Source: a virus
Taxonomy: Duplodnaviria; Caudoviricetes
Length of the DNA stretch: 64,000 bases
Strand: one strand, 5' to 3'
Virus record (IMG/VR): IMGVR_UViG_3300037297_000386
Position numbers and translations under genes: made by a program. Every line of letters starts with the position of its first letter. The first letter of the stretch is position 1. This document shows, piece by piece, positions 24,348 through 64,000 of this stretch. The notes below the pieces were generated by a model. That model was not told the origin of the DNA. It searched no databases and saw only the letters and a program-made list of their open reading frames with translations.

Positions 24348-27173
24348 TTACACTAGTGTTAATAATTCTTGAAGTCTAGAAGAAGTTACCGAAACTTCGT
24401 CATTTATAAACCCAGCTTTTTTCAAATACACTGTGAGAACAATTTTAGTCCGCAATTCTGGACGAGTGACAATATTCCTAATATTATTTGCTCGTATTCT
24501 TAATATTCCAGAATTCTGTGTATATAATACGGCAACAGTTGTTTCAATTGCCTCATACCCGTCAACCGATTGAAAATCATAACCATCTGAATCCTTAACA
24601 AATGATTGCACACTAGGAATTATTTTTACCTGATTCGCATCAAGAGCTCCACTAGTTACTAGCGTACCATCATAAAAATACATTTGATTTTTAACGAAAT
24701 TACTAAATACATCTACCTCTCCTTGCGTTGATCCCTCCGGAAGATCAATGACAATACTATTAATTTCTAAGTCAATTGGATATGTTGTTCCATCTACTGA
24801 TAATATATCTCCACCTAACAATACATCTCCTGGAATAAATGACGTGTTTTTACCACCCGTTGGAATATCTGATGTTATATCACTAGATTCTAATTGAGTA
24901 AATGTTTTTGGAATAAATCTTCTCAAATCGGTCAGTTCTAAATTATATGAAAACCAAAGTGGAACAAAGTCGATCCTAAATCCAATAGAATTAAATGGCA
25001 CAGCATTAAATGAACTATCCAATGATAGTATATTAGGAGTAGTAGTAAGTGGATTGGTCAAATTCTCTACTGTTAGTACTGCACGAGTAAAAGTACTTCC
25101 AGCCGTAAATCCGGTACCAAGAGCAATATTTTGTTGAATCATCTGCGGATCAAAAATGTTTATATATCCATTGTCAGTTACATCGGCCCTTAAAATTTCT
25201 TCGATCGTAACTGTACTAGACACTATAGCATTTCTTTGATCTATTGAAGCCAGTGAACCAGATTCTAGGTCTTTCCCATATCCATCTAATGCTTGGGCTC
25301 GAGCCACATCGTTAAGGTCTATTAAACCATCCCCATTAACATCGCCATAAGCATCAGTAAATATTTCTGTTTTTATAATACGATATTTTAAATCCGGTTC
25401 ATTAACATTTGGAACTAAGATTGATCCGATAAGATTATTCAGTGTTATATCTGAATTAGGCTGTATAATTGTAAATGTGTTGGATCTAACTAAACCAGGA
25501 AATTCAGTATAACCACTAATAGATGGATTGTCTACTGGATTTGTGTCTACTACAGATCCTATTATAATAGGTTCATTACCTGCATCAATTAATGTTGTCA
25601 AATCTGTTTCTGATATAATGGATACATCTGGCACATCTTTGATACGGGTGAATACTAAATTACCTGTTGATGGATGAGGAACACTATCTGTATATTCTAC
25701 AGATTTTTGTAACACGACATAATTGTTTGCTGTTGACGAGACATCTATCAGACTGTGATGCCCTTCTATATATGACTCATCCAAATTAGTTGTTGTATTC
25801 TTAGAAACACGTGGAGATGTTATTCGAACACCACTATCAAAGGCTGTCCCATCAGTTATTCTTACCGCATTAGTATAAACTTTAAACCACAAGTCACTTT
25901 CAGGTACATCAACCCACTTATTTTGAGAAAATATTGACATTCTCATCTCATCAGTATCAGTTGGTGCAGCATTTGTATTGGCCGCTTCTTGTAAAATAAC
26001 ATTTCCAACACTAATATTACCAGAACGACGTATAGTGATTATATAATATTTACCCACTTCAATATTTGGTTCAATATTAGGATTCGCTAATAATGACTGG
26101 GTAAATATAAAATCTACTATCTGAGGAGAATCTGTTAATGCAATACCTAACTCAGCCAACTCATCTTGATCAAAGGATACCTCTGCAATAGGAGATGGTT
26201 GCGGATCAAACTCTATCGATGTATTAGGAATCGTATCAGTGGGACACGTTGTCGTAGTTTGTAAAGCTCTTACACCTACAACAATATCTCCAGACCAATC
26301 AAATTCATGTCCTGGTAATGCTAAAGTGTTTTCTTCAATTGATAATAGAATAGATATTTTTTGTATATTATTTGTAGTCGCCTTAAATTTTTGCCCAATA
26401 ATTAGCCCAGTGCTATCATTTGCAGAAAGACCACGTGTCGTTGTAGCTGTAACATTAATTTTTAAGTCATCAGCATCTAATGACTCTGTATCAGCAATTT
26501 CATCTAATAAAATATCCAATGTTTTTGAAGCTGTTGCTGGTTTAAAATTAACATAATTCATATTTGGTTCTACAGATTGTTCAGCCATAATAGGATCTCT
26601 GGCCAGTGTCATTGGTAATGATTCTAATATTCGTAACCGACCACTGTAATTTCGACTTTTTATACCATCAATAGTTGTATTTTGATTGCCCCTAAAATCC
26701 TGTGCCATTATAGCGACTATATTTGTGAAATATTGTCTAGTTAGCTGTGATTCATTTTGTTCAAACACAATAACTTCATGAATAAAACCGCCTCCAAATG
26801 TTTGTCCAAATAAAAACACTTTTGTCGTTGGAGTTCCATCTAGCGACGAACTAGATAATTCGACTTCTAATTGATTACCAGAGGAACTATCTGATGGCTG
26901 TTCATATACAGTGAGACCAAATGTATCAACCGGATAAATCGGCTCACCGTCAAAATTTTGATTATTAATCAAGCTTTGTACTGAAGAGGGCACATCGTTT
27001 GTGTCAAATAAAACTCTTTGGACCGCAAACTCTTGTTCGATCCCACTGCCAGCTTGAAAATCAGTATTATTGGCAAGACTATCATGCCATGCAGCCTGTT
27101 CAACATCCATATCTGTCTCATTAATTTCTTGCCCATCATAATAATTAACATATGGAAGTATAGATCTAGTCAT
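24348..27173 (-). CDS. Baseplate-associated virion protein with a dockerin-like paired EF-hand
   Basis: Last gene of the tail module; GDVNGDGLIDLND and ADVTDNGYINIFD repeats; acidic and beta-rich. Confidence 0.65.
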   Translation of the reverse strand: MTRSILPYVNYYDGQEINETDMDVEQAAWHDSLANNTDFQAGSGIEQEFAVQRVLFDTNDVPSSVQSLINNQNFDGEPIYPVDTFGLTVYEQPSDSSSGNQLEVELSSSSLDGTPTTKVFLFGQTFGGGFIHEVIVFEQNESQLTRQYFTNIVAIMAQDFRGNQNTTIDGIKSRNYSGRLRILESLPMTLARDPIMAEQSVEPNMNYVNFKPATASKTLDILLDEIADTESLDADDLKINVTATTTRGLSANDSTGLIIGQKFKATTNNIQKISILLSIEENTLALPGHEFDWSGDIVVGVRALQTTTTCPTDTIPNTSIEFDPQPSPIAEVSFDQDELAELGIALTDSPQIVDFIFTQSLLANPNIEPNIEVGKYYIITIRRSGNISVGNVILQEAANTNAAPTDTDEMRMSIFSQNKWVDVPESDLWFKVYTNAVRITDGTAFDSGVRITSPRVSKNTTTNLDESYIEGHHSLIDVSSTANNYVVLQKSVEYTDSVPHPSTGNLVFTRIKDVPDVSIISETDLTTLIDAGNEPIIIGSVVDTNPVDNPSISGYTEFPGLVRSNTFTIIQPNSDITLNNLIGSILVPNVNEPDLKYRIIKTEIFTDAYGDVNGDGLIDLNDVARAQALDGYGKDLESGSLASIDQRNAIVSSTVTIEEILRADVTDNGYINIFDPQMIQQNIALGTGFTAGSTFTRAVLTVENLTNPLTTTPNILSLDSSFNAVPFNSIGFRIDFVPLWFSYNLELTDLRRFIPKTFTQLESSDITSDIPTGGKNTSFIPGDVLLGGDILSVDGTTYPIDLEINSIVIDLPEGSTQGEVDVFSNFVKNQMYFYDGTLVTSGALDANQVKIIPSVQSFVKDSDGYDFQSVDGYEAIETTVAVLYTQNSGILRIRANNIRNIVTRPELRTKIVLTVYLKKAGFINDEVSVTSSRLQELLTLV

Positions 27174-27266
27174 TTTATTCTCCTATTTTTTACAATCTGT
27201 CATTTTTTTTGTTGACAAAACCTAACTTTGCCGTAATAAAGATCTATGATCACACAAAAAGGGAAA

Positions 27267-30200
27267 TCACTTTTTATAAGAGATAATACTCTCACAATGT
27301 GAAGGTTTAATAACATTAATAAGTTCTTCTAATAGTTCTTCTAAATCTGTATTCCCTATAATCTTGTCAAATGAATCTACTACTTCAACAGAAAATCTAA
27401 AAATACCCCTTTCTGAATTTATAATTGTAGCAAGATATTCTATATCGTTCTCTGTATTATCAAAATTATATATTCCTGTAGTATATATATCTTCTACAAC
27501 TGGTGAAGCAAATTCATGATTTTGTATATAATTAATATCTATAGTATCAGTAGTTGTCCTTTTTATGGATTGTAATCTCTGAAGTTCAGAAAATCTCATA
27601 TTATCTATACGGGCTCTCGCTCCCTTTAATCCATATACATCTGTGCCTATATAAATCTTAGAAAACGTGTCAGTTAAATCTATATTATCTACCAAAAATT
27701 TATTAACACCGGGTCTAACCTCAGCTTGTCCCCATATAATTCCAGTGCCATAAATAAGGCCAGTGCCATATTTTATTGTTCCTCTCTCACTACCATCAAC
27801 AAATAATCTTAATCTATCTTGGTTATTTTCACTATTCATTTTCCACATTGCCATTATTCTATGCCATGTGTGTCGTTTCCATGCCATTGGGACAGAAATT
27901 ATATGTTCAATACCAGATGCTTTCACAAAAAAACATATACGACCATTTGGATCCCTAAACAAACTAACTCTGTCTCCCTGACTATTTAATGGAATATATG
28001 TAATTTTTAATGCTACATTTTGTGCTGGTAATGGTATTCCTAAAGTTATAGTCTTATAATCTACATTTGATACATATCCACCAGTATAATAATTTGTTCC
28101 AGTATTATATATATCTGTTATTAATCTAATGCTTTCCACTTCTCTTATTCTTTGATTAGTAATAACATTTAACGATGAGATAGATTCTATCTCTTCTTCT
28201 ACAACAGCGGACATGTCTATATAATAATGAAAATTTGGGTCACCACGTGAATCATCTAACGGACTTAACCAAAATTCAACAGTTCCTTCTTCAGAATTGA
28301 AAATATAATTAGCATTATTTATTATATATGGTTTATCTTGAACAAACTTGATTGAAGTCCCAAACGAATCATTCACACTAGAAGCTGATTCAAAACCGCT
28401 ATTGTATCTGTCTCTAAACACAGAATCATCGGCCACTTCATCGCCAAAATGCATTAGTAATAGTGTATTTTCATTATTATCTTGGGACTGTGATAAATTA
28501 TAGCTAGTTGTTACAGATGGAACGTTAGAATTAGCAATCTCTCCTGGTCTTGTATCATCAGACATTATATCTATTACTTTAAATTCATCAATAATACCAT
28601 CAAAGTTATTACTACCTGTGTAATCGCTACCAATATAAAAAGTATCTGGAATAGCATCTAACCTGATTCGTAACCTAGAAGGATAATCAACTTCGTACAT
28701 ACATCCATTAAGTATGAATGGTTGTCCAGCTGTTCCATATGTTTCTAATCTGAATATACCATTAGAATACTCAACAACCTCTGCAAAATCACCATTATTC
28801 TCGGATATAGTTATAGGGTTGTATTCTCTAATTTCTATTGACCCAACATATTGTGACGCATCAATTGGAATTACAGATACAGTTATTGAATCAATACTTT
28901 TCCAATATTCATCAGTAATTATTGTGGTGCTTTCTGTAAAAAGTATTGTTTCTTTAACAGCTCCCGAAAATGTCTTGCCTGATATGATTACTTGATTTCC
29001 AGGAATATTATAGTTAAAATTGTCACCGGAAAGTTTAACAGACAGTTTCCTACCAGATGATTGATTACTTGGTTGACAGACATTATCAAAGTAGGACTGC
29101 AACATTGTTACAAGCTGTGCCCCAATTATAGTACCAACTAAACCAAATCCACCACCAGCTTTAATCAAAGTTCTATCTAATATTATAGCAGTTATTTTAA
29201 CATCACCAAGTGATACTGGTGCAGACGAATTCAGTCTTATCTCATCATAACCGCCATCATATACATATACTTTTTCTTTACATCTCTGTAATACTAACCC
29301 TAATGGACGAATTATTACTGAGTCTCCAGTAGAGACTCCATTATTTATTGTAATTACGTGTGTATTATTTCCACCTCTTCTGACAGAATAATCTGGATAT
29401 TCTGCATCAACGCCATACAATTCTGTTTCATTACCGTCTGAATCAACCGATATTACCACAAAATCTTGTATATTTACTGGTGTCGACACAGTAGATGTTA
29501 ACGAATTAATACTATATTGTAAATTGCCGAGTGTTAGTGTAAATGCTCTATTTAATGTTAATGTGGTAGTTCCAACACCTGTTATTGTGTATGGTGCACC
29601 AAAATTGGGTTCTCCTATCCCATCTGCGGTTTCATCTAATAAATATAATTGATGACCAATCTGTATTCCAATTTCTGTGAAATCTGATGATGGTGAATAA
29701 AATATCTTAGATCCTGAAACCGTTGAACCATCAATTCCGCCGACAATTGGGTTAACAGATGACATCGTAATAATCTCTTCGGCAATATTACCAAAATCAT
29801 AAGATGAGTTAGCTTTCGGGTTTCCACCATATTTAAAGAGATTTGTGACTTCTTCTCCATCGACAAACATATGTATTTCATCTTGTTCATCTGAAGAATT
29901 AAATTTCCAAGAGATTGCTATGTGATGTAGCAGGTTAGCTTGCCAATCTCTAATATTTTTTGAAATATTGTACAAGCCGGCGTGTTTACCATATTTAAGT
30001 CTATTATCAAATACCTGAAAATTTAAGTACCCTGTTCCATCTTTGAATAAAGACATTCTGTTTGTTGCTGAATCTTCAGCAATATCAAAAATATAATGTA
30101 ATTTTCCAGATGAAAAAGATATACCATCTACATAATATGGAGAAGATCCGCCTATATCATCTACATCATCTATAAAAGCTGTAAAACTAATGCCATTAGT

Positions 30201-33200
30201 TGTGCTCGTTATAACATCTGTAATTTCATTTATTTCATATCCATCTGGGCCGGTTGGCTTTGCGATATTAAAAAACTCTCCATCAGTTGAAATTGATCCA
30301 GTAAATTCTACTATATTATTAGCATTTTCACGCCAACGAACATTCCATAAATCTGTGAATTCATCAAACCAAATAAAAAACCCAGTATCATTATTAATAT
30401 TAGAAGGTTCTCCAGATACAGAAATGTCACTATTGTTTATAGATAAAGTAAATGGCATTTCAACTGGATTTGCACCAGAAAAACCAATATATATACTAGA
30501 TAAATCTTCATACCCATCTATAAGTAAATTCGAGAATGTTAGACTAGCATCATTTGAAAGCCCCTTCCAATTTGGCCGTATCCAAGTTTCCAACGTACCT
30601 TCATCTAATCTAAGATGAGCTAAAGCTGGAACTTGAATATTGTTATCCGAAATAATAGCACCATTATCAAATTTACCAAGATCGAATGTCTGATTACTAT
30701 CATAAATAGGACTGCGCAAATGCAGATTATCCCTTCCAAGAACCCAATTATCAAAGGCAGCTTCATTTATGTTTGGAGTTACATCAGTAAAAGATTCGAC
30801 TAACCTCTCTAATGACGGAATTGTTGGTCCTTTAATAAATGATTGAAGAGCACCTCCAACAATTGACCTATATATTTCTCTATCTAAATTAGGTGAAAAT
30901 GTTGTAAGTTGGTCAATTTGTGTAAGTGATCCAAAGTTTGATAATAGTGACTCTCGAAGAGCACCATATTTGTAGGTTATATAGTATTCATCACCATTAT
31001 TTAATGAATCACTAATACTCCAGTCTAAACTATTAGCGCCATATTCATACGATATTATTAGCTCATCTTGTAAATATCTATAATCTATAAATAAATTTCC
31101 TGGATTGTAATCTACAATAATCGCATCGCCAACTTTCAATGGATTACTATTCCCAAGTGTAATAACATTACCATCAATTGAATCACGATTAATATCAAAA
31201 TATCCATCTAAATCTTCTGCTGGCAATGTGCCTAATTGTGTTACGGTATAAATATTTTTTACTGATACAATATCATGTCCAAGAGTAATAGTTTTTGGTG
31301 AATTAGAAGATATGTCTACTATCGTCCATATTCTGCCGTTTTTAGTATAATTAAAACTTTGAGATACAGTTATTTCATGGTCGTTAATTATATTTGTTAT
31401 TTCTACTTCTTGTACTGGTGTTTGAGATGATGACCCAACTATTAATATCCTTCCTATATCATCTGACGTAAATACACCACTATTAGATACAAAAGAATAG
31501 GATCCATTTAATGTTATTCCATCTTCGCCACTTTGGTGTGTACCAATCAATAATGTGCGTGTTGAATTATTATTTATAAACCGTTCCCCTACTTGTTCTA
31601 ATCCAACAATATTTGCAGTTGTATCGGTAATATTTCCTATATTGTATGTATTAACATTGATTTCTGAAGAACTCTTACTCCGATATATATTGTTAACATT
31701 CAAAATATGATCATTTACGGTATCGACACAAGAATACTGATAACTTATATCACCAAGATCGGTTCCTTCATCAGATGTAACAGCGACATATACAATTCCA
31801 TTTGTATAATCAATTATATAGTCTCCAATTTTCTGTAATTTATTAATATTTGTATTAACATTTGTGTATAATCTGTTTTCGTAGAAAAATTCTCTAATAA
31901 ACAAATCTGTTCTGGAAAATATCACTGATGTATTAAAATTGGCACCAACAAATCTATTTTGACTATCGGATATTCCATTGTTGGATAAATCTATTTTAAA
32001 AATTCTAATACTTGATGAATTTGTTAGTTCATCGGACACCAATAATATTTCTTGTGGAACCCGAGAAAAAGTAACACGTTCCCTAGTTACATCACGTTGT
32101 CTTGGGGCATTCCTACCGGAAAAAGAAACAGATGTGTTATTAAAGCGATCTAAAGTATATAACTCACCAGTTGTTTCGTTTAAAATTCTAAAGACATCTG
32201 TTACGGGGAAATGGTTAGTTTCAATTTTAAAAGAGTCAATTAATTTATTATTAACCCTTTCATTAAGAACCTCAACATGAGATAATACATTATAATCTGT
32301 TCCTTCAGCAAATGTATCTTCATAACTAAATGTTATCTTAGCTTCAATTCCAGAAATATTTCTAGTAGATCTTATTGCTATTTCATCTCTATCACTATTA
32401 AATGTATAATCCAAATCTTCGGAAAATATTTCACGATATGTATAGTTAGCAACAGGAGCGTTTTCACCAGTACCAGAATTATGTTCATCTTCACCATATA
32501 CATACACTTCACCAGTGTTATGGTTTATTGTATATTCCCCAACTTTTGATGGCAATCTAGTTATATCGTAAGGTAATTCTTTTTTGAAGGCTGGGTGTAC
32601 AGTTGTAAATGCAAGCTTCCCATTAGATGACTGTGTGTTGAGAAATTCTACAGAATTTGTGGAAGCTATTTCATCCAATTGTGTAACTATTGGAGCATGG
32701 TTAAGCGAAAATTTGTTTATAACTGGAGGCGTAGCTTCACGTACAACATTTTTCATTCGTGTAAATAAAATAGATTCTGTGTCCACATCGCGTCCTAATT
32801 TTTTATATATATATGATATATATATTTCATCCCCAGATCTTGGGATTAAAAATCCGCCTTCCGATCCAGTAACTGAGCTTAATGATAGTTCTATTTCATT
32901 ATCATCAAAATTTACATTACTAGATGCAGAATTTGTATCATACCTATTGTTTTTCAATGTATACCCAAATCTTTCTATATCATACTCAATATATTCTCCA
33001 TCTCTAAATAGGGAAACCGAAATAACCTGAATAACTGGTAAATTTGATACCTTGATATTGAGTCCATTAAAATGATTTGTAATATCTATATCATCAGTAA
33101 TTTTTTCATTTATAACATCAATAGACTGTAAACTTATGGGATCGGATGTAACGGTCGACACTATTGAGTTTACTATTGTAGAACTCCTAATTTTAAAAGA

Positions 33201-33827
33201 TTGAGATCTATTCGCATTAAACTCAATATATGTGATTTTGTTGGACCCAGTAGGCGTTCTAGCAACACGAAGTATTTCAAAGGCGCCACCATTATCTAAT
33301 TTGTCTATTGGACCATCATCTCTTTCTTTTAATTCATCTGTCACTAGAACAGATAAATAATTACCTGAACGTACAGTTTCTATAGAATCTCTTGCTTTTT
33401 GTAATTCGTCAGCAGTAGATGAAATTAAATCTCTAACTAGCGTTGTTTCTCCTGTCTCATACAAAGTAGAAACATCATTAAACATTGCATCTCTAATATC
33501 ATTTTGTTCTTCCCCAGGACTATTAAAAAAGAATGAATTTCTGTTACCATCCTCAGTAATTATTTCTCCATTAACTGTTTGAAAAGGAGTAGTATTGGTA
33601 CTACTAAATGTTATTTTATATTGAACGTTTGGGAACAATGGTCGAAATGTTATTTTTACTATATCATTTTCAACGCTAACAGATTTTATCTCTGGGTTGT
33701 TAATGCTATCAATTCCAGACACAATAGATATATTATTGACACCGATATTTGTGTCTACATCATCGTTAAATAGTATCTGTATACTTGATACCGTCAGTTC
33801 AAGTGTACGCACATAAGCAAAAGCCAT
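27267..33827 (-). CDS. Giant baseplate wedge protein (gp7/gpI-like) with LamG/concanavalin-like domains
   Basis: Follows baseplate J; EGTLETWIRP, HHIAISW..MFVDG, FDGIIDEF, EGTVEFW, WHRIMAMW..LFVDG, IDNMRFS; C-terminal INVIKPSH like Tail_P2_I. Confidence 0.7.
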   Translation of the reverse strand: MAFAYVRTLELTVSSIQILFNDDVDTNIGVNNISIVSGIDSINNPEIKSVSVENDIVKITFRPLFPNVQYKITFSSTNTTPFQTVNGEIITEDGNRNSFFFNSPGEEQNDIRDAMFNDVSTLYETGETTLVRDLISSTADELQKARDSIETVRSGNYLSVLVTDELKERDDGPIDKLDNGGAFEILRVARTPTGSNKITYIEFNANRSQSFKIRSSTIVNSIVSTVTSDPISLQSIDVINEKITDDIDITNHFNGLNIKVSNLPVIQVISVSLFRDGEYIEYDIERFGYTLKNNRYDTNSASSNVNFDDNEIELSLSSVTGSEGGFLIPRSGDEIYISYIYKKLGRDVDTESILFTRMKNVVREATPPVINKFSLNHAPIVTQLDEIASTNSVEFLNTQSSNGKLAFTTVHPAFKKELPYDITRLPSKVGEYTINHNTGEVYVYGEDEHNSGTGENAPVANYTYREIFSEDLDYTFNSDRDEIAIRSTRNISGIEAKITFSYEDTFAEGTDYNVLSHVEVLNERVNNKLIDSFKIETNHFPVTDVFRILNETTGELYTLDRFNNTSVSFSGRNAPRQRDVTRERVTFSRVPQEILLVSDELTNSSSIRIFKIDLSNNGISDSQNRFVGANFNTSVIFSRTDLFIREFFYENRLYTNVNTNINKLQKIGDYIIDYTNGIVYVAVTSDEGTDLGDISYQYSCVDTVNDHILNVNNIYRSKSSSEINVNTYNIGNITDTTANIVGLEQVGERFINNNSTRTLLIGTHQSGEDGITLNGSYSFVSNSGVFTSDDIGRILIVGSSSQTPVQEVEITNIINDHEITVSQSFNYTKNGRIWTIVDISSNSPKTITLGHDIVSVKNIYTVTQLGTLPAEDLDGYFDINRDSIDGNVITLGNSNPLKVGDAIIVDYNPGNLFIDYRYLQDELIISYEYGANSLDWSISDSLNNGDEYYITYKYGALRESLLSNFGSLTQIDQLTTFSPNLDREIYRSIVGGALQSFIKGPTIPSLERLVESFTDVTPNINEAAFDNWVLGRDNLHLRSPIYDSNQTFDLGKFDNGAIISDNNIQVPALAHLRLDEGTLETWIRPNWKGLSNDASLTFSNLLIDGYEDLSSIYIGFSGANPVEMPFTLSINNSDISVSGEPSNINNDTGFFIWFDEFTDLWNVRWRENANNIVEFTGSISTDGEFFNIAKPTGPDGYEINEITDVITSTTNGISFTAFIDDVDDIGGSSPYYVDGISFSSGKLHYIFDIAEDSATNRMSLFKDGTGYLNFQVFDNRLKYGKHAGLYNISKNIRDWQANLLHHIAISWKFNSSDEQDEIHMFVDGEEVTNLFKYGGNPKANSSYDFGNIAEEIITMSSVNPIVGGIDGSTVSGSKIFYSPSSDFTEIGIQIGHQLYLLDETADGIGEPNFGAPYTITGVGTTTLTLNRAFTLTLGNLQYSINSLTSTVSTPVNIQDFVVISVDSDGNETELYGVDAEYPDYSVRRGGNNTHVITINNGVSTGDSVIIRPLGLVLQRCKEKVYVYDGGYDEIRLNSSAPVSLGDVKITAIILDRTLIKAGGGFGLVGTIIGAQLVTMLQSYFDNVCQPSNQSSGRKLSVKLSGDNFNYNIPGNQVIISGKTFSGAVKETILFTESTTIITDEYWKSIDSITVSVIPIDASQYVGSIEIREYNPITISENNGDFAEVVEYSNGIFRLETYGTAGQPFILNGCMYEVDYPSRLRIRLDAIPDTFYIGSDYTGSNNFDGIIDEFKVIDIMSDDTRPGEIANSNVPSVTTSYNLSQSQDNNENTLLLMHFGDEVADDSVFRDRYNSGFESASSVNDSFGTSIKFVQDKPYIINNANYIFNSEEGTVEFWLSPLDDSRGDPNFHYYIDMSAVVEEEIESISSLNVITNQRIREVESIRLITDIYNTGTNYYTGGYVSNVDYKTITLGIPLPAQNVALKITYIPLNSQGDRVSLFRDPNGRICFFVKASGIEHIISVPMAWKRHTWHRIMAMWKMNSENNQDRLRLFVDGSERGTIKYGTGLIYGTGIIWGQAEVRPGVNKFLVDNIDLTDTFSKIYIGTDVYGLKGARARIDNMRFSELQRLQSIKRTTTDTIDINYIQNHEFASPVVEDIYTTGIYNFDNTENDIEYLATIINSERGIFRFSVEVVDSFDKIIGNTDLEELLEELINVIKPSHCESIISYKK

Positions 33828-33828
33828 A

Positions 33829-36800
33829 TTATCGTTCCTCTACCTCTATAGTAACTGTTCCAGCATCTAAATACTGATTTTTTTCTGCAGTAACACTTAA
33901 CAAATTTCCACTGTTTCCGACACTAAAATTAATAATTCTTACGCGATCAATTCCATTAACTGAATACAATTTATTAATAACATCAGACGCATCCACTGTT
34001 GTTCCAAGACTACTAGCTGTCAGAAAACTTGTTACAGCTTCTATAGCATCTTGTACCACTGTTAATGACTGAGTTTGGTATTCTGATAATAACACAATTT
34101 TTGAATATACATTAATAATAACCGGCTCAGCAATTTTCACTAAGACGTCAGCAGTAATAGGCCTGACATTTTCAATAGCATTGGTAGCATCATTTGCCAA
34201 GGTATTATGATTAAATGTAACTGTTATACGTTCATTTTCCTTAGGTGCGGTATAATCATAGCTTACATTATATACTGTATTATTAACAGGTTGATTAAAA
34301 TTTGACACAGTTATATTTCCAGATATACTGCCAGAAGAATCTTTGAATCCTGATGCAAGTGATACTCTGCTTATATCTATAAAATATTTATCAGTAATAT
34401 GTGTTCCATCTTTTGAAAAATATAATTGTTCATAATTATTAGTATAAATATAATAGAATGTTGCTCGAACAATATCTCCAGTATTCAATCTAGCTTCAAC
34501 ATTTTCGGATGTTTGTGGTAAGACTACTTTCGTCTTACTGATAGATGAATTTTCTAGTGACACATCTAAATCATACGAATTATTTTTAAGATAATAATTT
34601 ACTATATCATAATTATTATCTATATAATCTACTTGGCCAGAATTATCTAGTAGTACTCTTTCTAGACTAACTAACTTCATAATCTGAATATTTGACGATA
34701 TTGAGGTTGTATTTAGATCTGTCTTAATTGCTGACTGCAAATCTATTTCGTATCCGGATCCAGATGTTACAACTACTAATGCGTCCGTTACTTTATGTAC
34801 AGTTGTACCTGATATAGTTATTATTCCTTCTGACGGAATTGATGAAACAGCCACTTTAATGTTGGATCCGGCTCGGCGTAGATTGCTAGTGAAATTATTA
34901 TCATCATCAATTAAATTGGATGTTGGCTGTTCCCCACTCACTTCTCCGGCTACTAGAAATTTATTATTATTTTTAGTGAACGGTAAATTACTTAATTCAT
35001 CTTCTGGAACTAGAGTTAATACATTTGCTATGTAATTAACCAAAACACTGGTGCCGAACGATGTCACATTTTCTGGTAATATTATCGTTGTACCAGTAAA
35101 TGTACCTTCATTATACCCATCTGGAGCAAACATGTCAGATGCATTGAATCTAACCTTTACTGTATCACCATCTTCTGCAATTGAATCGGTTGGCAACACA
35201 ATGGCTGATGTGCCAGATAATGTTCCACCTCTAGCATCTGTATTAAACAATTCTGCATTATCTGATATTCGTCTTATGTCGACAACATTTGTTACTGTAT
35301 CATTTGTAGTTACCGTACCATTACTAATATTAGTAATACTAGTATCGAATGAATTTACTGATAATACTTTGAATATTGGGTGTGTAACTGTAATAGCCAA
35401 ATTACCATAGCCATCATCTACAACGGTTGACGGCTCGTTCTTTACTAAATTACCAAAGCCCCAATCAACAGAATCTTGAACCCGGCGAGACTCATTATAG
35501 TTACCTAGGCTATCGAAATCAAACACATTATCAAAGTTTTTAACCCATGTATAATCTACTTGCAATATATCAGTACCAACTGGAAGTGTACTACCGCTGA
35601 TCATAATTTTCCCAGTAGTGTTTAAACCACCTTCTTCACCATCCGGGTTTTGATATTCAACAATATATCTTTCTCCAGTTGTAAGATTTACTATCCTACT
35701 AACATTTCTGATTGGAGTATGACGTAATGTAACATAACTTCTATTAGATGTACTTGTAATAGAATTTTCATTAGTAACTAAATAATCCTGAGTTATGTCC
35801 CTAATTTCACCTACATCCGAAAAATTTAATGAATCTATTCCATTGAAAACACCTTTTGTAACGTTTTCATTATCTAATTCAATATAATCTGATACCCAAT
35901 GTAATTTATCAAAACCAAACGGACTACCACTAAAATTTCCCGTGTCCGTTACAAGTTCATAATTACCATGTTCGCGGCCTTGTTCATCAGTATACTTTTC
36001 TACAAAATTAGCACCCGAAGAACTGCCACTAACGCTAATTATATTATCAATTGGTTGATATGGTAAATCATTAGAAGAAATTAAAGTAACCCGGCGTTGG
36101 GCAGCATTCAGTGTTGTATCTTGCCCTTTTTGTCCTAATATGTAATCATTGGATGGATCGGTTGGATCATTTTTACCACTTTGATCATTAAATATAAATG
36201 AATCTATCTGACTTTCTAAATTACTACCGAGAATATATATATCTACTTTCCCACCACTACCAGGGTCAGATACAACCAAATTCCCATCACTATTTGTTGA
36301 AACTTGTGTGCCATCCCGAATTAATAATGGATCCCCAGGAACTACTATTTCTGAATCTAATATACCAGGAACAATACCAACAGCATTTGTATAACCGAGA
36401 GATGTTCCGGTATTACTGCCAGCAAAAATACTAAGAATACGGGATCTAAATTCATCATCACTCTCAGAATTACTACCTCCACTGAACGAATTTAGATTAG
36501 TTACATTTGAGATAGAATCTATATTATGTGATGTGATAGAGAATCTACCAATATTTCCAGAAGTACCTGCAGTTAGTGATTGAACAGTAATTTCTACAGC
36601 AAATTCATCTGTAATACCAGCAAGTTCAAGATCGGCGCGTAAACGGGTAGCTGTAGCTCTATACACATTAGCATTAGTTGCAGTCATAATTACGTTTTCC
36701 TGGGTAGCAAAATTAACGCCATTACGTGCAGTAACTATAGATCCGCTGGAAATTAGTATATCTACATCCATATTGTTTGTAGTAAATACCACAGTCCCAC

Positions 36801-40785: not shown

Positions 40786-40796
40786 ATACAATCTCC

Positions 40797-52248: not shown

Positions 52249-52390
52249 GAACTTTCTCCTTTATAAAATTATTTTTCAATAATCCATTTTTATTATTTAC
52301 TATTTTTTATTCAAATATTTTTTTGTTTTCACATAATAAGTGATGCCATTATAGAATTTTGACAATTTTCTTTTTAAAGATATCTATAAA

Positions 52391-52438
52391 ATTAATACAC
52401 AACGCCTGTGTTGTGACAGGCGCGTGTTTTGTGTTAAT
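52391..52438 (-). terminator. Hairpin after the tail tube gene (intrinsic terminator-like, alternative folds possible)
   Basis: Minus strand ACAC-G-CGCCTGT-CACAAC-ACAGGCG-TT-GTGT-ATTAATTTT within a 250-nt gap; the U-tract is imperfect. Confidence 0.5.
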
Positions 52439-52498
52439 GTACCAATGGATAAAATCAAACGGAGGGAGCTTACTCATTTTGAACTTTATATAGAATTA

Positions 52499-53973: not shown

Positions 53974-53989
53974 TTTATTCTATTGATTT

Positions 53990-56557: not shown

Positions 56558-56572
56558 CGTTCAATTCTCCTA

Positions 56573-57496: not shown

Positions 57497-57561
57497 TAAA
57501 TAAACCTCTATCTACACCTAATATGTAAATATTGATAGATTTTATACATTATTTGATAGGT

Positions 57562-58338
57562 TTATATTATATCAGCCATGGTAATCTGTTCATTAACAGT
57601 CAAAGCATCAGATGTTTCTCCATCTATTGTCCCAAATGCCAAACATACACCAATCCGCTCCACAATATTACTAATTGGTATATGCACTTTCCATTCACTT
57701 CTCGTATCCAAATTGACTGAAACCATATATAAATAATCATTAGCATATGGTTCTTCAATCTCACCAGATGTAGAAAGAGATTTTATAAATAGCCCTGCCC
57801 TTTGTAAATCCATGCGTTTTGTACCCATAAGAGTTACTTGAACAATATCAGCTATTTCTTCACGATCTATTTCATTCTCTGATACAATTTTAACTTCAAA
57901 TGTCTGATCCCAAGCTCCGACAAGTGTATGATAAGCAGGAGTATAAATAACAGAACTGTTGCCATAACCATCTGTAATTATTTCTTTTCTATTAATAACA
58001 CCTAATAAATTTTGGTTAAATGAAATAGGAACATATCTACTACCAGTATTTTTAACAATAATAGATGGATTAAATTTTATATCATATCTGTATGTACTTC
58101 CTATAAAAATTCGCGTAGTTTCTTCATCATCTAATCCGGCATTAGGATCAAGGCCTAAATGATAAGGAGTCTTGGGAAACCCAAAAACAGAGGAAACATA
58201 CTTATACTCTCTATCTTGTGAAAAAATTTCACGAAGTGTATCGATTAAAATACTTTTACCATGAAATATTCCAGTTTGTTGTACAACATGTTGTAAATTA
58301 AAAATATCAGATATTGCACGATGTGAAACAAGTGTCAT
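57562..58338 (-). CDS. Tail completion/terminator-like protein
   Basis: Upstream of the sheath; PSIIV, FEVKIVSEN..DREEIADIV, V.LD.R.EW pattern resembles tail-terminator folds. Confidence 0.5.
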   Translation of the reverse strand: MTLVSHRAISDIFNLQHVVQQTGIFHGKSILIDTLREIFSQDREYKYVSSVFGFPKTPYHLGLDPNAGLDDEETTRIFIGSTYRYDIKFNPSIIVKNTGSRYVPISFNQNLLGVINRKEIITDGYGNSSVIYTPAYHTLVGAWDQTFEVKIVSENEIDREEIADIVQVTLMGTKRMDLQRAGLFIKSLSTSGEIEEPYANDYLYMVSVNLDTRSEWKVHIPISNIVERIGVCLAFGTIDGETSDALTVNEQITMADII

Positions 58339-58352
58339 ATTTTCCTCAACAA

Positions 58353-58952: not shown

Positions 58953-58970
58953 TTCTTACTCTCCATAATA

Positions 58971-61900
58971 TTAATATCTAAATCTTATAGTAACCCCATA
59001 AACTCTAATATTATCCATACTTGTTGGATTCACGTAAAAATGTGTAATCCGAACATAATATCTAAAAGCGTTATGGTTAATAACCTCTGTTAAACCGCTA
59101 ATTTCTCCGGCGCCACCCGTTATATGGGCATATCCGAAATAACCACTAACATTCATTTCATTAGAACCAACTGTAGTTCCTATTACTTCGGATTCAAATT
59201 CGGATTCAAGTAATTTTCTCTTTATTATTTCTGCATTAAAATATTCACTGCCAGATTGTGGAGCGTTTCTTCCTTGTACTTGTATTCCAGTCAATGTTGA
59301 GCCATTCGGTATATTAGATATAGGAAAATATAAATATCGTGTATATATGCCAGAATTATCTGATATAGTCCAATAGTCTCTCGTACCATCCATTCTCCAC
59401 TGTGCTTCATATCCATCATATCCTGGGACCGCTGACGAAGCTGGTAAGCCAACAGCATCAGGTAAACCACGGTTTATTCCTATAGTATTATTGTTTGTAT
59501 AAAGTGATAATTGAGAAATGGTTGGCCCAATTTGCAAGCTACTAGCACTATACGTAGACGTATCTGGTAAACTATTTCCAATAAACATACATCCTGATAC
59601 TTCAACATTCGGCATTCTAATTGGGGCACCAGTTAAATTAGTCGTAATTATAGAATTATTTGTGATAGTGACATTTGTTACTTTGTTGGCCGCATATATA
59701 CCATGTGTCCCTTGACCTTCTAAAATATTTCCTGTTATTGTTGTACTGTCCATATTTTGTTCCATATTAATAAACACAGTATCAGCGGTTGCTTTACTAT
59801 CATTCTTTAATCTATTGCCAGAAACAATATGATAATTACCATTCAAATTAATAAGAACTGACATGGTTGTTCCTTCAATAGTATTACCAATTATTTTCAT
59901 TCCTTCGTTAGCCGTGCTTTTATTAGATATACCAACTGAATTCTCATTTACCATATCCATAATAGAATTATTCACAATATCAATGTAACTGGATTCAGCA
60001 TAAATACCATAATTGAAAGAATAATCAGTTGATGGGTCGGGCGTACTAAAATGATTGGTAGAAATTTTACTGCGTTCGCCTTTCCAATAAATTCCATAAT
60101 TTCCTGGGCCAATTAATTTATTGTCTGATATATTTGCCCTATGTGCATTACCATATATATATCTAGCATTAGTATTTCCGATTCTATCTAATGTATTACC
60201 AATGATTGACGCCAATGTAGAAGTATTCTTAACGTAAATACCATAACGAGCCTCACTGTTGATCAACATGTTATTTTCTATGTTAATAGAATCAACACTA
60301 TCGTCTATCCAAACAAGAGCTGTATTGTCATAATTTGAATCATAAACTATCGAGTTCGATATAGTATTACCATGCAACATCGCATGTTCGACATCTTCTA
60401 TGTAAATGCCATATACAAAGCTGTCTCGCAATTTAATGTTATTTATATAATTATTAAATAATGAAAGATATGATATTTTATTACCAGTTGCTGATTCACT
60501 TATAACCCTAATTCCATTAGATATTCGATTTTCTTCCCCACTATCTAGTTCCCCAGTTATAGTATTATTATTAATTCTTAATGTCTCTATACTTTCGCCT
60601 ATATCTACATAAATACCACGAATATCTGTATTATTTACATCAAGTGCCTTGATAGTGTTCCTGGTTATTTGTATATTATTGGATGATCGAACAGATGTTC
60701 CAACTTTTATCCCGTTAGAAACTCCAATTCCAGAAACATTAGTAATATTATTATTATCAATTATCATATTATTACATCCAGTATCACATATTATACCAGA
60801 ATAAATATTATCAATTTTGTTATTAATGATACTTACATTGTCTGATGCGTTTATTGTGATACCTATATCATAACTATTGGTCGATATTGTATCGCCAAAT
60901 CTAAACAGACATCTTTCGATATTAACATTTGAACCATCAATCAATATAAGTGATCCCTGCAAACCAACAGTAGCGCTTAGAATTTCGATATTTTCGAGAT
61001 TATTATTTCCCTCTAGAGTAATAAAATTATCACCATGTTCTAACTCATTTATTATTTGACTTTTCCCGTTTCCACCAAATGGTACATTTCCAATAATAGA
61101 AACACCATTTGGTACGACTAATGGATTTTTAGGATAGACTGGATTTATTATTCGTATTATTAACTTTTCTTTATTTGGATAATGGTTCGCATACAACAAT
61201 GCGCCTTCAAGACTTCTAAAGTTTCCAATTACATTATTTGTTTCATCAACTATGATATCTATTTTATCATCTAGATTGTTGGTAAATTTTCTAATATCTA
61301 CCACATTTTCAATATTACCATTATTTACGGTTATTTGATACAATGGCAATATTTTACCAAATGTTGCATCGGCATTATATCCATCAGTCAGTATTTCACC
61401 AAGTTCATCACTTAATACTTGTATAGATCCAAAATCATTTATTCCAACTATTCGTATAGAATTGTTTAATATTATTCCTTCTGAATCTTGCACATTTACT
61501 ATAACTTTTTGAGTCTCTATTGCTAAACGAACCCCATTGACATAGGCAATTCCACCACGCAACGGTAAAGCTGCCATATCAGTAACAGAATCATAATATG
61601 GAATATCAAGAAGATCGAAACCACGTACAATACCATTAGAGCGCAACTCAGATGTTGGCCTTTGACTGAATATCTCGATAAAGTCATCTCTTATTTCATT
61701 CGAACTAATATTACCAAATAAACGATTATCTATTATATTTGTAATCGAATGGGTACCATCAAAATGTACAGTAGCTAATAAAAAGGCCTCATCTGGTGGA
61801 ATAGACTCACTTATAGTTGCAATTTCTAATCCCCCTGGTATATTTCCTGGAATGATTTTAAAAAGCATATAATCTAGACCGTTTGGATGATATAATTTAA

Positions 61901-64000
61901 AACTACCTATAAAATTTTCATGTATCCTTACAGTTTCTCCAGAGACAGTATCATCTACAATATTAAAATCTACAAAATCACCGTCCAGGGTTACTAATAT
62001 CATTACATCGCCAATTGGAAATGAATCAGATATATTTATAATCTGAACGCCCGAGCCAAGTGTAGTTCCGTAGATTAATTTTTGATGAACAAATGTCTCC
62101 CCACCAGCACTAATAAGAACTTGTACTAGCCCCATATCAGTTTCTGTACTTTCTAGTATATCTAATGGAATATTAGAAGATGATACTCTAACATTAAAAG
62201 TTGTAGGATTATTAGGAGAATCAATTTTTTCTTTACTAAATAATGACACACTTGTTGAATTAGATGAAAGAACGACATAACTACCATTAGTATCTAATGT
62301 TGGGTGCCCAGTAATATGTAAAATCGACCCGGGCCCAATACCATATCTGATTGGATTCACAAGTAATCCATTTTTCCATAACATAAATGTACTTGATTCG
62401 CTAGTTATACTAGCGTATCCATCGAAGGTGTCAGATAATCCGGTCAGAGAAACGCCATTAATTGAATATTTGGTATTATTATTTCCATAAATCTTCTGAT
62501 CGACGATATTAGCACCATAGGCATCAAATCCTAATGGATAATTACCAGTATAACCATCAACTATTTCAAGTGTGTAATCTGGACCAATCCAATTGTGTGC
62601 AATAGCTAACTCATTTCCTATCCTAAATGCTGTAATTGGAAAATGGTACCCTAAATCAGGGTCACTCACATAGGCATTAATTCTTTCTGCTACAGAGCTA
62701 GAATCCACTGGATCTGCTTGACCAGTCCCCAATCGTTCTTGATGTAACCCAGGAATTATTATTTCTCTATAAAGAGAATTACCCATACCCACTTTAATAG
62801 CAATTTCATATCCATCGGAATTCAAAATAGATCCATTAAATCCTATACTCGTAGCTCTGGCAGAGCAAGGATTCATAATAGAAATCGTATCTACAATATT
62901 TTCATTACCAATTGAAGTACAAGCTAATGGGGCATATTCGCTAGAAATTGCTGATGGTTTGTATATGTTTACAACAACATTATCTCCATAGGATCTACTT
63001 TCAGAAAAAATGTGAAACACAAGTAATTCATCATTATCTAATTGTGGTAAATTACCAAGTGTTTTAGAACTGGTTAATGGGCCAATAGCACTAATTTGAT
63101 ATGTTCCACTATCAATTATACCACTTTGTTGGACAATTTCCAAAATATCGCCAGCTTCTACCCCTAAAGTAGCAAACGATGTTATATTAGGGATCTTAAT
63201 AACACTAGTCCCTTCAGTATAAGAGGCCCCAGATATAGTGTCAACCAAGCGACGATTAGAATTATAATAATTGCCAGAATTAATTTCTTTTAAAATTCCA
63301 TTCGAATGAAATTCGTCAATATGAGCAACACCAAGAGCCCCAGCACTTGCATCCATACTGTCTAATGCTTCTTGCACATTTATTGATGTTCTGTCTATGC
63401 TAACAAAATCGGTTGTATCAATGCCAATTTCAGATGCAATATGTTTAAATTGAGACGGTATGTTGCTATTAATATGCGGTACTATAGTATCGTTGCCAGA
63501 GATAATAATACCGGATAATTCGTTTATAGCATCTCCTATAGTAGTAGCTTCAAGTCCAGCAACGCCAATACTACTACCAACGTTTATTTTTATATTATAC
63601 CCATCATGATAATAGCCGCGCCCCAATGTGTGAATATTTAACATAGATGTTGAGCTAGACAAACCGGAAGATATGCCATTGAGATCAGTACGCATAGAAT
63701 CGACAAGATTTTTTAAATATGTCGTTCCATAATCTAATGCTAATTTTGATTCTTGTATACCAGCGGTTGCACCGATGTGTTTATTTAAAACAGGTAATGT
63801 TAGTAGTCCAATATTTTCAAGAGATGACGGTTTTATTCGCCCATTGGGATCTATTGATACATTAACTCTATCCACAAAAGATGAACGATTGCCTTGTGGA
63901 TTTAATCCGACCGTTTTTTGAATAATAAAAATCGCATCTCGCAGAGAATTAATAACATCGCCACTAATTTCACTGACATTTTGGTTAATGCGCGGTATTT
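58971..64000 (-). CDS. Giant virion protein with a C-terminal right-handed parallel beta-helix (5' end outside the window)
   Basis: Frame is open to the window edge (IPRINQNVSEISGDVINSLRD...); many PbH1-type repeats (I.NN.I, I.GN.L) in the C-terminal half. Confidence 0.8.
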   Translation of the reverse strand, partial: IPRINQNVSEISGDVINSLRDAIFIIQKTVGLNPQGNRSSFVDRVNVSIDPNGRIKPSSLENIGLLTLPVLNKHIGATAGIQESKLALDYGTTYLKNLVDSMRTDLNGISSGLSSSTSMLNIHTLGRGYYHDGYNIKINVGSSIGVAGLEATTIGDAINELSGIIISGNDTIVPHINSNIPSQFKHIASEIGIDTTDFVSIDRTSINVQEALDSMDASAGALGVAHIDEFHSNGILKEINSGNYYNSNRRLVDTISGASYTEGTSVIKIPNITSFATLGVEAGDILEIVQQSGIIDSGTYQISAIGPLTSSKTLGNLPQLDNDELLVFHIFSESRSYGDNVVVNIYKPSAISSEYAPLACTSIGNENIVDTISIMNPCSARATSIGFNGSILNSDGYEIAIKVGMGNSLYREIIIPGLHQERLGTGQADPVDSSSVAERINAYVSDPDLGYHFPITAFRIGNELAIAHNWIGPDYTLEIVDGYTGNYPLGFDAYGANIVDQKIYGNNNTKYSINGVSLTGLSDTFDGYASITSESSTFMLWKNGLLVNPIRYGIGPGSILHITGHPTLDTNGSYVVLSSNSTSVSLFSKEKIDSPNNPTTFNVRVSSSNIPLDILESTETDMGLVQVLISAGGETFVHQKLIYGTTLGSGVQIINISDSFPIGDVMILVTLDGDFVDFNIVDDTVSGETVRIHENFIGSFKLYHPNGLDYMLFKIIPGNIPGGLEIATISESIPPDEAFLLATVHFDGTHSITNIIDNRLFGNISSNEIRDDFIEIFSQRPTSELRSNGIVRGFDLLDIPYYDSVTDMAALPLRGGIAYVNGVRLAIETQKVIVNVQDSEGIILNNSIRIVGINDFGSIQVLSDELGEILTDGYNADATFGKILPLYQITVNNGNIENVVDIRKFTNNLDDKIDIIVDETNNVIGNFRSLEGALLYANHYPNKEKLIIRIINPVYPKNPLVVPNGVSIIGNVPFGGNGKSQIINELEHGDNFITLEGNNNLENIEILSATVGLQGSLILIDGSNVNIERCLFRFGDTISTNSYDIGITINASDNVSIINNKIDNIYSGIICDTGCNNMIIDNNNITNVSGIGVSNGIKVGTSVRSSNNIQITRNTIKALDVNNTDIRGIYVDIGESIETLRINNNTITGELDSGEENRISNGIRVISESATGNKISYLSLFNNYINNIKLRDSFVYGIYIEDVEHAMLHGNTISNSIVYDSNYDNTALVWIDDSVDSINIENNMLINSEARYGIYVKNTSTLASIIGNTLDRIGNTNARYIYGNAHRANISDNKLIGPGNYGIYWKGERSKISTNHFSTPDPSTDYSFNYGIYAESSYIDIVNNSIMDMVNENSVGISNKSTANEGMKIIGNTIEGTTMSVLINLNGNYHIVSGNRLKNDSKATADTVFINMEQNMDSTTITGNILEGQGTHGIYAANKVTNVTITNNSIITTNLTGAPIRMPNVEVSGCMFIGNSLPDTSTYSASSLQIGPTISQLSLYTNNNTIGINRGLPDAVGLPASSAVPGYDGYEAQWRMDGTRDYWTISDNSGIYTRYLYFPISNIPNGSTLTGIQVQGRNAPQSGSEYFNAEIIKRKLLESEFESEVIGTTVGSNEMNVSGYFGYAHITGGAGEISGLTEVINHNAFRYYVRITHFYVNPTSMDNIRVYGVTIRFRY

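Follow-up and report, generated by a model that had tools for sequence, protein, structure and literature searches.

The tripeptide Asp-Gly-Tyr as a selected motif of outer virion proteins in uncultured jumbo phages and a candidate sequon for tyrosine glycosylation

Background

The 64,000-nucleotide stretch of the virus record IMGVR_UViG_3300037297_000386 (IMG/VR; Duplodnaviria, Caudoviricetes), hereafter called the window, has a GC content of ~32% and holds all its substantial open reading frames (ORFs) on the minus strand. Its right 40 kb form a contractile-tail and baseplate module and its left 24 kb a glycan toolkit; since the wedge protein of the window is itself recorded on a 311,797-bp contig, the source is a jumbo phage. 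The subject of this study is a motif of three residues, Asp-Gly-Tyr (DGY), which an initial annotation had counted by hand in five virion proteins of this window and had proposed to be a sequon, whose tyrosines in surface loops would be decorated by the adjacent phage glycosyltransferases (GTs). We report that DGY is, with near certainty, a selected motif specific to the outer virion proteins. The explanation that we favour is O-glycosylation of its tyrosine by a soluble phage GT, to which we give a probability of about 0.45.

The motif was followed in 80 wedge-centred jumbo-phage loci from IMG/VR (L002-L081, with 505,522 amino acids (aa) of ORFs), in five whole related genomes taken as the ingroup, and in an outgroup of two huge phages. 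A contig of 206 kb, G004, which is collinear with the window and has tail-module proteins of 50-71% identity, was used as a stand-in genome. Expected tripeptide counts were obtained from a composition model, from a first-order Markov (Markov-1) model and from 1000 within-protein shuffles, and the indel density in alignments served as a proxy for the exposure of a site. The clade is represented by hundreds of contigs in metagenomes of sediment, soil, freshwater and wetland, with hundreds of homologs of the wedge protein and ~55 full-length metagenomic homologs of the beta-helix protein; no wedge homolog was found among GenBank phages, so that no cultured member of the clade was identified. Some wedge homologs have been deposited as proteins of metagenome-assembled genomes named 'Patescibacteria group bacterium', on contigs of 180-247 kb, and these are probably jumbo-phage contigs mis-binned as bacteria of the candidate phyla radiation (CPR).

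Results

Genes of the locus and carriers of the motif

Five proteins of the tail and baseplate module carry 15 DGY sites among exactly 48 DG dipeptides (11+18+7+2+10), and each coordinate given for them by the initial annotation was reproduced (Table 1). The left 24 kb hold a single further DGY, in the context VRDGYIM. No DGY occurs in the sheath-like 855-aa protein, the 1591-aa tape-measure-like protein, the tube-initiator-like protein, the sheath initiator or the other inner tail proteins. The related tetrapeptide DAYG is likewise where it had been placed, at aa 174 and 198 of the sheath, aa 607 of the 941-aa protein and aa 492 of the beta-helix protein, and the DGY at aa 630 of the 941-aa protein does fall within a dockerin-like segment, namely residues 609-683 of a weak Dockerin_1 match under the Pfam cut-off.

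Table 1. DGY-carrying genes, glycosyltransferases and glycan toolkit of the window. All DGY sites lie on the minus strand and the coordinate of a site is its low coordinate; sites are listed as residue = positions.
Feature	Position	Strand	DGY sites	Matches and remarks
Beta-helix tailspike-like protein (P0075)	58971..63998	-	aa 132 = 63597-63605; aa 395 = 62808-62816; aa 481 = 62550-62558; aa 526 = 62415-62423; aa 872 = 61377-61385; aa 1528 = 59409-59417	1675 aa seen, ~14 N-terminal aa beyond window edge; Pfam Beta_helix E 7e-13; PHROG tail spike
258-aa virion-module protein	57562..58338	-	aa 123 = 57964-57972	No Pfam or PHROG match
Baseplate J-like wedge subunit, 1076 aa	33829..37059	-	aa 549 = 35407-35415; aa 647 = 35113-35121	Pfam Baseplate_J E 4e-21; PHROG baseplate wedge E 2e-29
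2186-aa giant wedge/baseplate protein (P0076)	27267..33827	-	aa 874 = 31200-31208; aa 1104 = 30510-30518; aa 1195 = 30237-30245	ConA-like lectin domain, Laminin_G_3 E 5e-12
941-aa protein	24348..27173	-	aa 630 = 25278-25286; aa 863 = 24579-24587; aa 871 = 24555-24563	Last gene of baseplate block; weak dockerin-like segment, Dockerin_1 E 0.004, under cut-off
GT4-family (GT-B) glycosyltransferase	23070..24269	-	0	Directly downstream of 941-aa gene; weak Pfam Glyco_transf_4 and Glyco_trans_1_4
GT2 (GT-A) glycosyltransferase	22327..23085	-		Overlaps GT4 stop; Glycos_transf_2 E 1e-23; conserved partner of GT4
GT2, 19361-20191	19361-20191	-		Pfam
Double GT2	17176-19323	-		Pfam
GT2, 16352-17179	16352-17179	-		Pfam
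GT2, 13162-13929	13162-13929	-		Pfam
GT2, 12206-12958	12206-12958	-		Pfam
PGM/PMM	10833-12215	-		Pfam
GT1	9618-10622	-	10122-10130	Sole non-virion DGY of window
PseB-like dehydratase fused to N-terminal MerR-type helix-turn-helix (HTH)	2007-3179	-		Pfam; Polysacc_synt_2 E 3e-80; HTH E 3e-9
Cytidylyltransferase, 1007-1771	1007-1771	-		Pfam
Cytidylyltransferase, 549-1055	549-1055	-		Pfam
GNAT	1-555	-		Pfam

Enrichment of DGY in the window and among its relatives

A composition-corrected test of all tripeptides was made on the whole window with no selection of proteins, and DGY ranked first of the 5686 tripeptides observed. It occurs 16 times, against 3.5 expected by composition (P 9.7e-7) and 5.0 under the Markov-1 model (P 6.7e-5), and any tripeptide equally extreme arose in just 3 of the 1000 shuffles, which corresponds to a family-wise P of ~0.003. 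Tyrosine follows DG in 16 of 121 cases in the window, compared with 3.2% after other x-G dipeptides (P 2e-6). Since the sequences flanking the 16 sites show no relation to each other, the sites are not copies of one repeat, and an origin from a repeat module is ruled out.

In the 80 loci, 1127 DGY were counted, as against 93 expected by composition and 245 by the Markov-1 model; the z-score of DGY is 56 and that of the runner-up tripeptide 28. The excess is confined to the wedge (509 observed, 42 expected), 941-aa (395, 16), Baseplate-J (81, 13), 655-aa (83, 5 (4.8)) and fibre-like families, while all GT families of these loci, with ~40,000 aa, hold 1 DGY where ~6 would be expected. The 655-aa protein itself, which is Invasin_D3-like (38824-40791, minus strand), has 0 DGY in the window and in G004; its family is rich in the motif only in more distant relatives, and therefore the tagged proteins differ between sub-lineages.

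One may object that chance or composition has produced the enrichment, as the five proteins were chosen after the fact and the Markov-1 P of 6.7e-5 fails a Bonferroni factor of 8000. We consider this objection already refuted and its probability negligible, because the first rank is reached without selection and withstands the shuffles, and because the enrichment is replicated in the 80 loci and the five genomes together with conservation of sites and specificity for the order of the residues (see below).

The enrichment resides in the protein and not in the DNA. In the five whole related records, the pattern GAYGGNTAY occurs 69-165 times on the coding strand, and 1-9 times on the opposite strand; the control with the reversed pattern gives 12-44. 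Every synonymous codon of DGY is in use in these records, which indicates that selection acts on the protein and rules out a motif at the nucleotide level.

Compared gene for gene, the window and G004 have the same proteins DGY-positive and the same proteins DGY-free. In G004 as a whole, 17 proteins carry 148 DGY where 6.5 are expected, and the remaining 148 proteins carry 9 where 7.2 are expected. A G004 protein of 3634 aa (1493-12394, minus strand; the same as L082 1493-12394) has 57 DGY, two ConA-like domains and Big_5-like repeats of ~115 aa, and it contains 8 DGY in a stretch of 36 residues as well as the run DGYIDGYVDVDGYIDGYFVPDGYQLDGYFDDGYDGY; another, of 3811 aa (148299-159731), has 33 DGY. 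The DGY-rich proteins of G004 yielded few matches to Pfam or PHROG, and a PDB sequence search with the immunoglobulin-like (Ig-like) repeats gave no match. Because G004 proteins beyond the region covered by the window are far richer in DGY, the window represents the milder part of the phenomenon, and the equivalents of the giant proteins probably lie outside the window in its own genome.

Strictness of the motif

Among DG-X tripeptides of the 80 loci, only the one with tyrosine is enriched: DGY stands at 12-14x expectation, DGF at 0.9-0.97x and DGW at 0.3-0.4x. Among X-GY tripeptides, only aspartate is enriched (EGY 0.2-0.4x, NGY 0.8x), and with the middle residue varied DGY reaches 12.1x, DAY 1.8-1.9x and DSY 0.84x. 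The five other orderings of D, G and Y fall at ~0.4-1.5x once DGY is masked. Where conserved sites decay, they do so mainly to DAY (43 cases), DDY (18) and DSY (10), and Tyr is replaced by Phe in 9 of ~300. With DGF and NGY at background and the Tyr-to-Phe change rare, both the hydroxyl of the tyrosine and the carboxylate of the aspartate are apparently needed.

This strictness speaks against one of the alternatives raised by the initial annotation, a beta-turn, at least in the form of a generic type I' turn with an aromatic residue in the following strand: Asn-Gly should serve equally well in such a turn, and Phe in place of an aromatic of the core, whereas NGY, DGF and DGW are all at or below background, and this explanation is disfavoured. 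DGT is also raised, by 2.7x, in the 80 related loci; together with the SGT, TGT and SGY found at aa 526 of the beta-helix protein, all with hydroxyl residues, it hints at a looser acceptor class D/S-G-[Y/T].

Conservation, turnover and location of the sites

In 49 homologs of the beta-helix protein (39-92% identity), DGY is retained at aa 132 in 47, at aa 395 in 48, at aa 481 in 44 and at aa 872 in 48, at aa 526 in 25 (with the alternatives SGT, SGY and TGT) and at aa 1528 in 2. An AlphaFold2 (AF2) model of its N-terminal 960 aa, with a predicted local distance difference test (pLDDT) score of 70, places aa 395 past the end of a helix, aa 481 past a strand, aa 526 within a strand and aa 872 in a 3-residue turn. 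Around the invariant FHDGY of this protein, residues 120-235 (window 63000-63998, minus strand) hold invariant histidines H123, H131, H186, H226 and H231 and the near-invariant H175; the region folds poorly as a monomer (pLDDT <50), and the histidine cluster may bind a metal or form part of an oligomer interface.

The single DGY of the 258-aa protein is kept in the 70%-identical G004 ortholog (IITDGYGNS versus LIMDGYGNK). The wedge protein keeps it at aa 874 in 19, at aa 1104 in 26 and at aa 1195 in 31 of 39 homologs, which carry additional tandem copies within insertions. For Baseplate J, 78 sequences have DGY at aa 647 in 22 and at aa 549 in 5, the latter position being DAY in 9 and DSY in 6. 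In the 941-aa family (69 sequences), DGY is present at aa 871 in 42, at aa 863 in 31 and at aa 630 in 10, and relatives carry 2-4 tandem copies in the C-terminal loop.

Over the families, DGY appears in 111 distinct alignment columns of the wedge and in 50 of the 941-aa protein. A second DGY lies within 10 residues at 350 of the 1127 sites, with runs such as DGYDGYDGY. The gap fraction around the tyrosine of DGY is 0.35-0.49, as compared with 0.10-0.23 around the remaining tyrosines of these proteins, and the surroundings of the DGY tyrosines are much less conserved; the P-values of this difference are inflated by shared ancestry and the effect sizes are large. By this proxy, the sites lie mostly in regions that are probably loop-like and exposed, as the initial annotation had supposed.

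Such a distribution has to be weighed against a purely structural origin, in which DGY is read by nothing: an Asp-capped turn with the tyrosine packing or hydrogen-bonding, or a metal site (Ca2+ or other) that stiffens loops and linkers of fibres, fixed as the preferred loop-closing device of the clade. Several sites do behave in this way, being invariant and placed where strands end or turns are tight; each Ig-like (Big_5-type) repeat in the giant protein of G004 has DGY at two or three fixed positions, and an alternating Y-x-V-x-I pattern follows it; and some DGY of the 941-aa family are positions 5-7 of dockerin/EF-hand loops (DVNGDGYITxxD), the tandem arrays being Asp-rich like Ca-binding linkers. 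An EF-hand-like context, [DN]-x-[DN]-x-DGY, is however limited to 46 of the 1127 clade sites and to none of the 16 in the window, so that the calcium loop of the initial annotation would cover a small part of the sites. Neither the values of NGY (0.8x) and DGF (0.97x) nor the mere 9 Tyr-to-Phe replacements fit a structural turn well, most sites are in indel-rich regions and shift between columns, which is unusual for an element that determines a fold, and outgroup baseplate proteins with homologous domains do without DGY, and in the phages of the clade itself the inner tail proteins and enzymes stay at background. On balance we think a structural module of this sort unlikely as the whole explanation. 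It could still be part of it, for the structural and the enzymatic readings are not exclusive and an enzyme could have come to use a structural DGY turn as its recognition element.

The same variable loops and multivalent tandem arrays would also suit a binding element, either a Tyr/Asp 'paratope' loop for polysaccharide of the host or a docking peptide for a decoration, lectin-like or chaperone protein, the more so as DGY is limited to outward-facing, receptor-proximal proteins and several carriers have domains of kinds usual in adhesion modules (ConA-like lectin, Ig-like, beta-helix). Host-binding loops, however, normally diversify, while here the exact tripeptide is kept across many habitats and presumably different hosts; no candidate for a reader co-varies with DGY except the GTs, and the fixed tie of the GT block to the baseplate module would be left without explanation. 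A binding role is accordingly one we hold to be rather improbable.

Glycosyltransferases beside the baseplate genes

The gene directly downstream of the 941-aa gene, the GT4 at 23070-24269, is the leading candidate for a reader of DGY. Homologs of GT4 and of its GT2 partner stand after the baseplate block, i.e. after the 941-aa gene, in 34 of the 40 loci whose flank is long enough. The other six loci, without an adjacent GT detectable by BLAST, have inserted genes at this place; of five records examined for them, four have GT4 0-6 kb beyond, and the fifth is a short fragment. The GT2 has 35 homologs in the 80 loci, and in all five ingroup genomes 3-8 GT2 genes are clustered just downstream of the baseplate. 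A relative rich in DGY and free of GTs, or the reverse, was sought within the clade and none was found.

The AF2 model of GT4 has a pLDDT of 95, and Foldseek matches it to retaining GT-B enzymes with E of 1e-15 to 1e-11, the nearest structural neighbours being glycogen synthase, PglA, BshA and MshA, with a chlorovirus GT at rank 11. There is no GT41 or BAHT enzyme among the top structural matches and no PDB sequence match. A complex prediction of GT4 with aa 835-941 of the 941-aa protein gave a score of 0.00, the partner's own fold having a pLDDT of just 35-40, and it counts neither for nor against an interaction. For the GT2, the best PDB sequence match is a weak one, GalT1 of the Fap1 adhesin glycosylation pathway (5hea, E 2e-5).

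In the outgroup, Bacillus phage G and LR745208.1, only the N-terminal domain of Baseplate-J is shared with the clade, and the baseplate proteins have DGY at background. No GT2 or GT1 above the Pfam cut-off was found in these two phages, the matches in phage G being sub-threshold.

An unrecognised phage enzyme, or one of the host, might also place something other than a sugar on the tyrosine (sulfation, phosphorylation, nucleotidylation, oxidation to dihydroxyphenylalanine (DOPA) or cross-linking), with the GTs serving the DNA or the host envelope. A tyrosine that cannot be replaced by Phe fits any O-linked tyrosine chemistry, the acidic neighbours (D before; E, D or N after) resemble contexts of the sulfation type, and most proteins of these genomes are without assigned function. 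Domain searches of the five ingroup genomes, on the other hand, found Sulfotransfer_3 in 0/5, Fic in 0/5 and a protein kinase in 1/5; a family search for tyrosinase in these genomes found none, with the control of that search also silent everywhere. The GT block is the only class of enzyme seen to travel with DGY. We therefore regard another modification as distinctly improbable.

The glycan toolkit and other genes of the window

Altogether the toolkit of the window amounts to at least six GT2 and two GT1/GT4 genes, and its part from 1 to 20191 is collinear with 71.6-93.5 kb of G004. The fusion of a MerR-type HTH to the PseB-like dehydratase, which joins a DNA-binding domain to a nucleotide-sugar enzyme, is unusual and is conserved in G004 at 60% identity. 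A thymidine kinase gene is interspersed in the toolkit. Between its GT2 genes lies a 200-aa protein (13929-14531, minus strand) that matches the Type I Thoeris inhibitor Tad6 (PF25188, E 5e-52), that is, an anti-defence gene in a sugar operon. Wzy_C, PglL and Bac_transf were absent from the Pfam-scanned proteins of the window, where ORFs of <100 aa, nine ORFs of 102-150 aa and the neighbours of a 307-aa protein are unassigned.

Mobile elements are found in both modules. Within the GT cluster there is a TnpB/Cas12f-like protein (20696-21913, minus strand; Cas12f1-like TNB E 1e-15, weak OrfB_IS605), which is probably a recent mobile insertion because it has homologs in just 2 of the 80 loci. Between the tail genes there is a LAGLIDADG homing-endonuclease-like protein with an N-terminal HTH (53149-53973, minus strand), which is taken as a mobile element since its G004 match (27% identity) sits elsewhere in that contig; a LAGLIDADG_2 gene is also found after the baseplate block in locus L016.

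Discussion

A possible mechanism and the points against it

The mechanism that we favour would run as follows. During assembly of the virion in the cytoplasm, a soluble phage GT would recognise Asp-Gly-Tyr in exposed loops and attach a sugar to the hydroxyl of the tyrosine. The conserved GT4 beside the baseplate genes, possibly with its GT2 partner, would be the initiating enzyme; the remaining GTs would lengthen the glycan, and the products of the dehydratase, cytidylyltransferase, GNAT and mutase genes would supply nucleotide sugars. The outcome would be a glycan coat over those parts of the virion which meet the surface of the host and the environment.

Our estimate of about 0.45 for tyrosine O-glycosylation, started by GT4 and/or GT2 and fed by the neighbouring genes for nucleotide sugars, is drawn from four features taken together: a signature specific for the hydroxyl, a turnover and tandem arrangement like those of sequons, the restriction of the targets, and the fixed synteny of the GTs. 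From them we infer a modification of the tyrosine, its nature as a sugar and the identity of the enzyme. The stronger statement, that a previously undescribed system exists in which a GT-B/GT-A pair O-glycosylates tyrosine at DGY, at dozens to hundreds of sites per virion, with a glycan coat throughout the clade, is a tentative proposal that we rate somewhat short of even.

Several points weigh against glycosylation. Some sites look structural, as they are invariant, stand in or next to strands, or keep fixed positions in Ig-like repeats. To our knowledge, no GT-B or GT2 enzyme glycosylates tyrosine. The fold of GT4 is that of a generic GT-B enzyme in which the acceptor is not revealed, and GtfA (4pqg) comes at rank just 39 among its structural neighbours. 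The GT families of the window itself are not convincingly depleted of DGY. The link between GTs and DGY consists of synteny and one contrast of ingroup with outgroup, and it is weak as independent evidence, because one clade set against two outgroups amounts to a single evolutionary event. In phage G, moreover, five large adjacent proteins, gp423-gp427 (L084, 322000-347000), have 11 DGY versus 1.5 expected, in a region picked post hoc; this mild excess in a phage with just sub-threshold GT matches counts against the link, and is only a lead to a cultured model. Finally, GT clusters of phages may serve hypermodification of DNA or alteration of the host surface (PMC12619734).

The proposal of the initial annotation thus stands in part. 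Its observation holds, as DGY is enriched by selection at the protein level, on outer virion proteins only and in variable loop-like regions, next to a GT toolkit whose GT4 and GT2 keep their place. Of the alternatives that it named, the generic beta-turn is disfavoured (NGY 0.8x, DGF 0.9x) and the EF-hand-type Ca loop accounts for few of the sites. As to the comparison with phages free of GTs, the two outgroup phages, in which no GT2 or GT1 passes the Pfam cut-off, are also without the enrichment in their baseplate proteins, and no such contrast is available inside the clade.

Significance

If tyrosine glycosylation at DGY is true, it would provide the first sequence rule for tyrosine O-glycosylation and the first tyrosine-directed enzyme of GT4 or GT2, hence an acceptor not known before for such common GT families, and it would supply a tag of three residues for the glyco-engineering of proteins in the cytoplasm of bacteria. 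A further consequence would be that widespread uncultured jumbo phages coat with sugar the organelles that contact the host, which bears on adsorption, stability and the evasion of hosts or grazers. Even without a GT as the reader, a strict tripeptide at 12-14x expectation on outer virion proteins, turning over in loops, is the signal of an unknown recognition event, and DGY is usable as a marker, from sequence only, of virion-exposed proteins in poorly annotated genomes.

Comparison with known systems

A full-text search of the literature found no paper that describes a DGY motif in phages. The nearest case of virion glycosylation is that of mycobacteriophages, whose GTs, as far as the work is reported in PMC12619734, glycosylate capsid and tail-tube proteins (Freeman et al. 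2023, PMC10527164). As here, GT genes of the phage stand beside structural genes, and a coating with glycan in the cytoplasm during assembly is proposed. The acceptors there are C-terminal regions of capsid and tail-tube subunits, while the candidate DGY sites here are on baseplate, wedge, spike and fibre proteins; a C-terminal acceptor of the mycobacteriophage type has no counterpart in our data, in which DGY is absent from inner tail and sheath-like proteins and the capsid gene lies outside the window. Mycobacteriophages are siphoviruses of actinobacteria and are unrelated to the uncultured, myovirus-like jumbo phages of this study. Another jumbo lineage, the moraphages, has GTs among its core genes (PMC12619734).

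Tyrosine as an acceptor is known from the O-glycosylated S-layers of Paenibacillus alvei and Thermoanaerobacter (PMC2943079; Zarschler et al. 2010, PMC4397588), where, as proposed here, it is located on a self-assembling surface protein. In S-layers the glycan is first assembled on a lipid carrier, from which a membrane O-oligosaccharyltransferase (OTase) moves it en bloc, outside the cytoplasm, to few sites, and the review gives no sequon (PMC2943079). That system needs an OTase and an initiating phosphoglycosyl transferase, and neither family turned up in general Pfam scans of the window proteins. Because the transfer takes place outside the membrane, the S-layer route is inapplicable to a virion assembled in the cytoplasm, and a direct soluble transferase would be needed. 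That such chemistry is feasible in the cytoplasm is indicated by the toxins Afp18 of Yersinia ruckeri and PaTox of Photorhabdus, soluble GTs that glycosylate a tyrosine of Rho with a single sugar attached directly (PMC4518317). They differ in being GT-A toxin domains aimed at one tyrosine of host Rho GTPases, with no repeated motif and no role in building a virion.

With regard to the form of the motif, the general O-glycosylation of Bacteroidota uses the sequon D-(S/T)-(A/I/L/V/M/T), which is read in the periplasm by an enzyme of the host on many surface proteins. Both this sequon and DGY have three residues with Asp first and a hydroxyl acceptor, the latter being proposed for DGY. The acceptor of Bacteroidota is the Ser or Thr right after Asp, whereas in DGY a Gly intervenes and the Tyr would accept, DSY being at 0.84x.

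With regard to the logic, the hyperglycosylation of adhesins is the most similar. HMW1C/NGT acts on Asn-X-Ser/Thr, the heptosyltransferases TibC/AAH act on the repeats of autotransporters, and GtfA/B with GalT1 act on serine-rich repeat adhesins. Like the arrangement proposed for the phages studied here, these systems combine many short acceptor motifs on giant surface proteins with a neighbouring cytoplasmic transferase and with GTs that extend the glycan. Their targets are Asn or Ser/Thr, modified by GT41 or BAHT enzymes, while here the target would be Tyr, the GT4 has a generic GT-B fold and the likeness of the GT2 to GalT1 is weak. We group DGY, under an interpretation that is supported in part, with virion glycosylation or sequon-directed modification of proteins, in which a sequon based on tyrosine would, if real, be a new chemistry.

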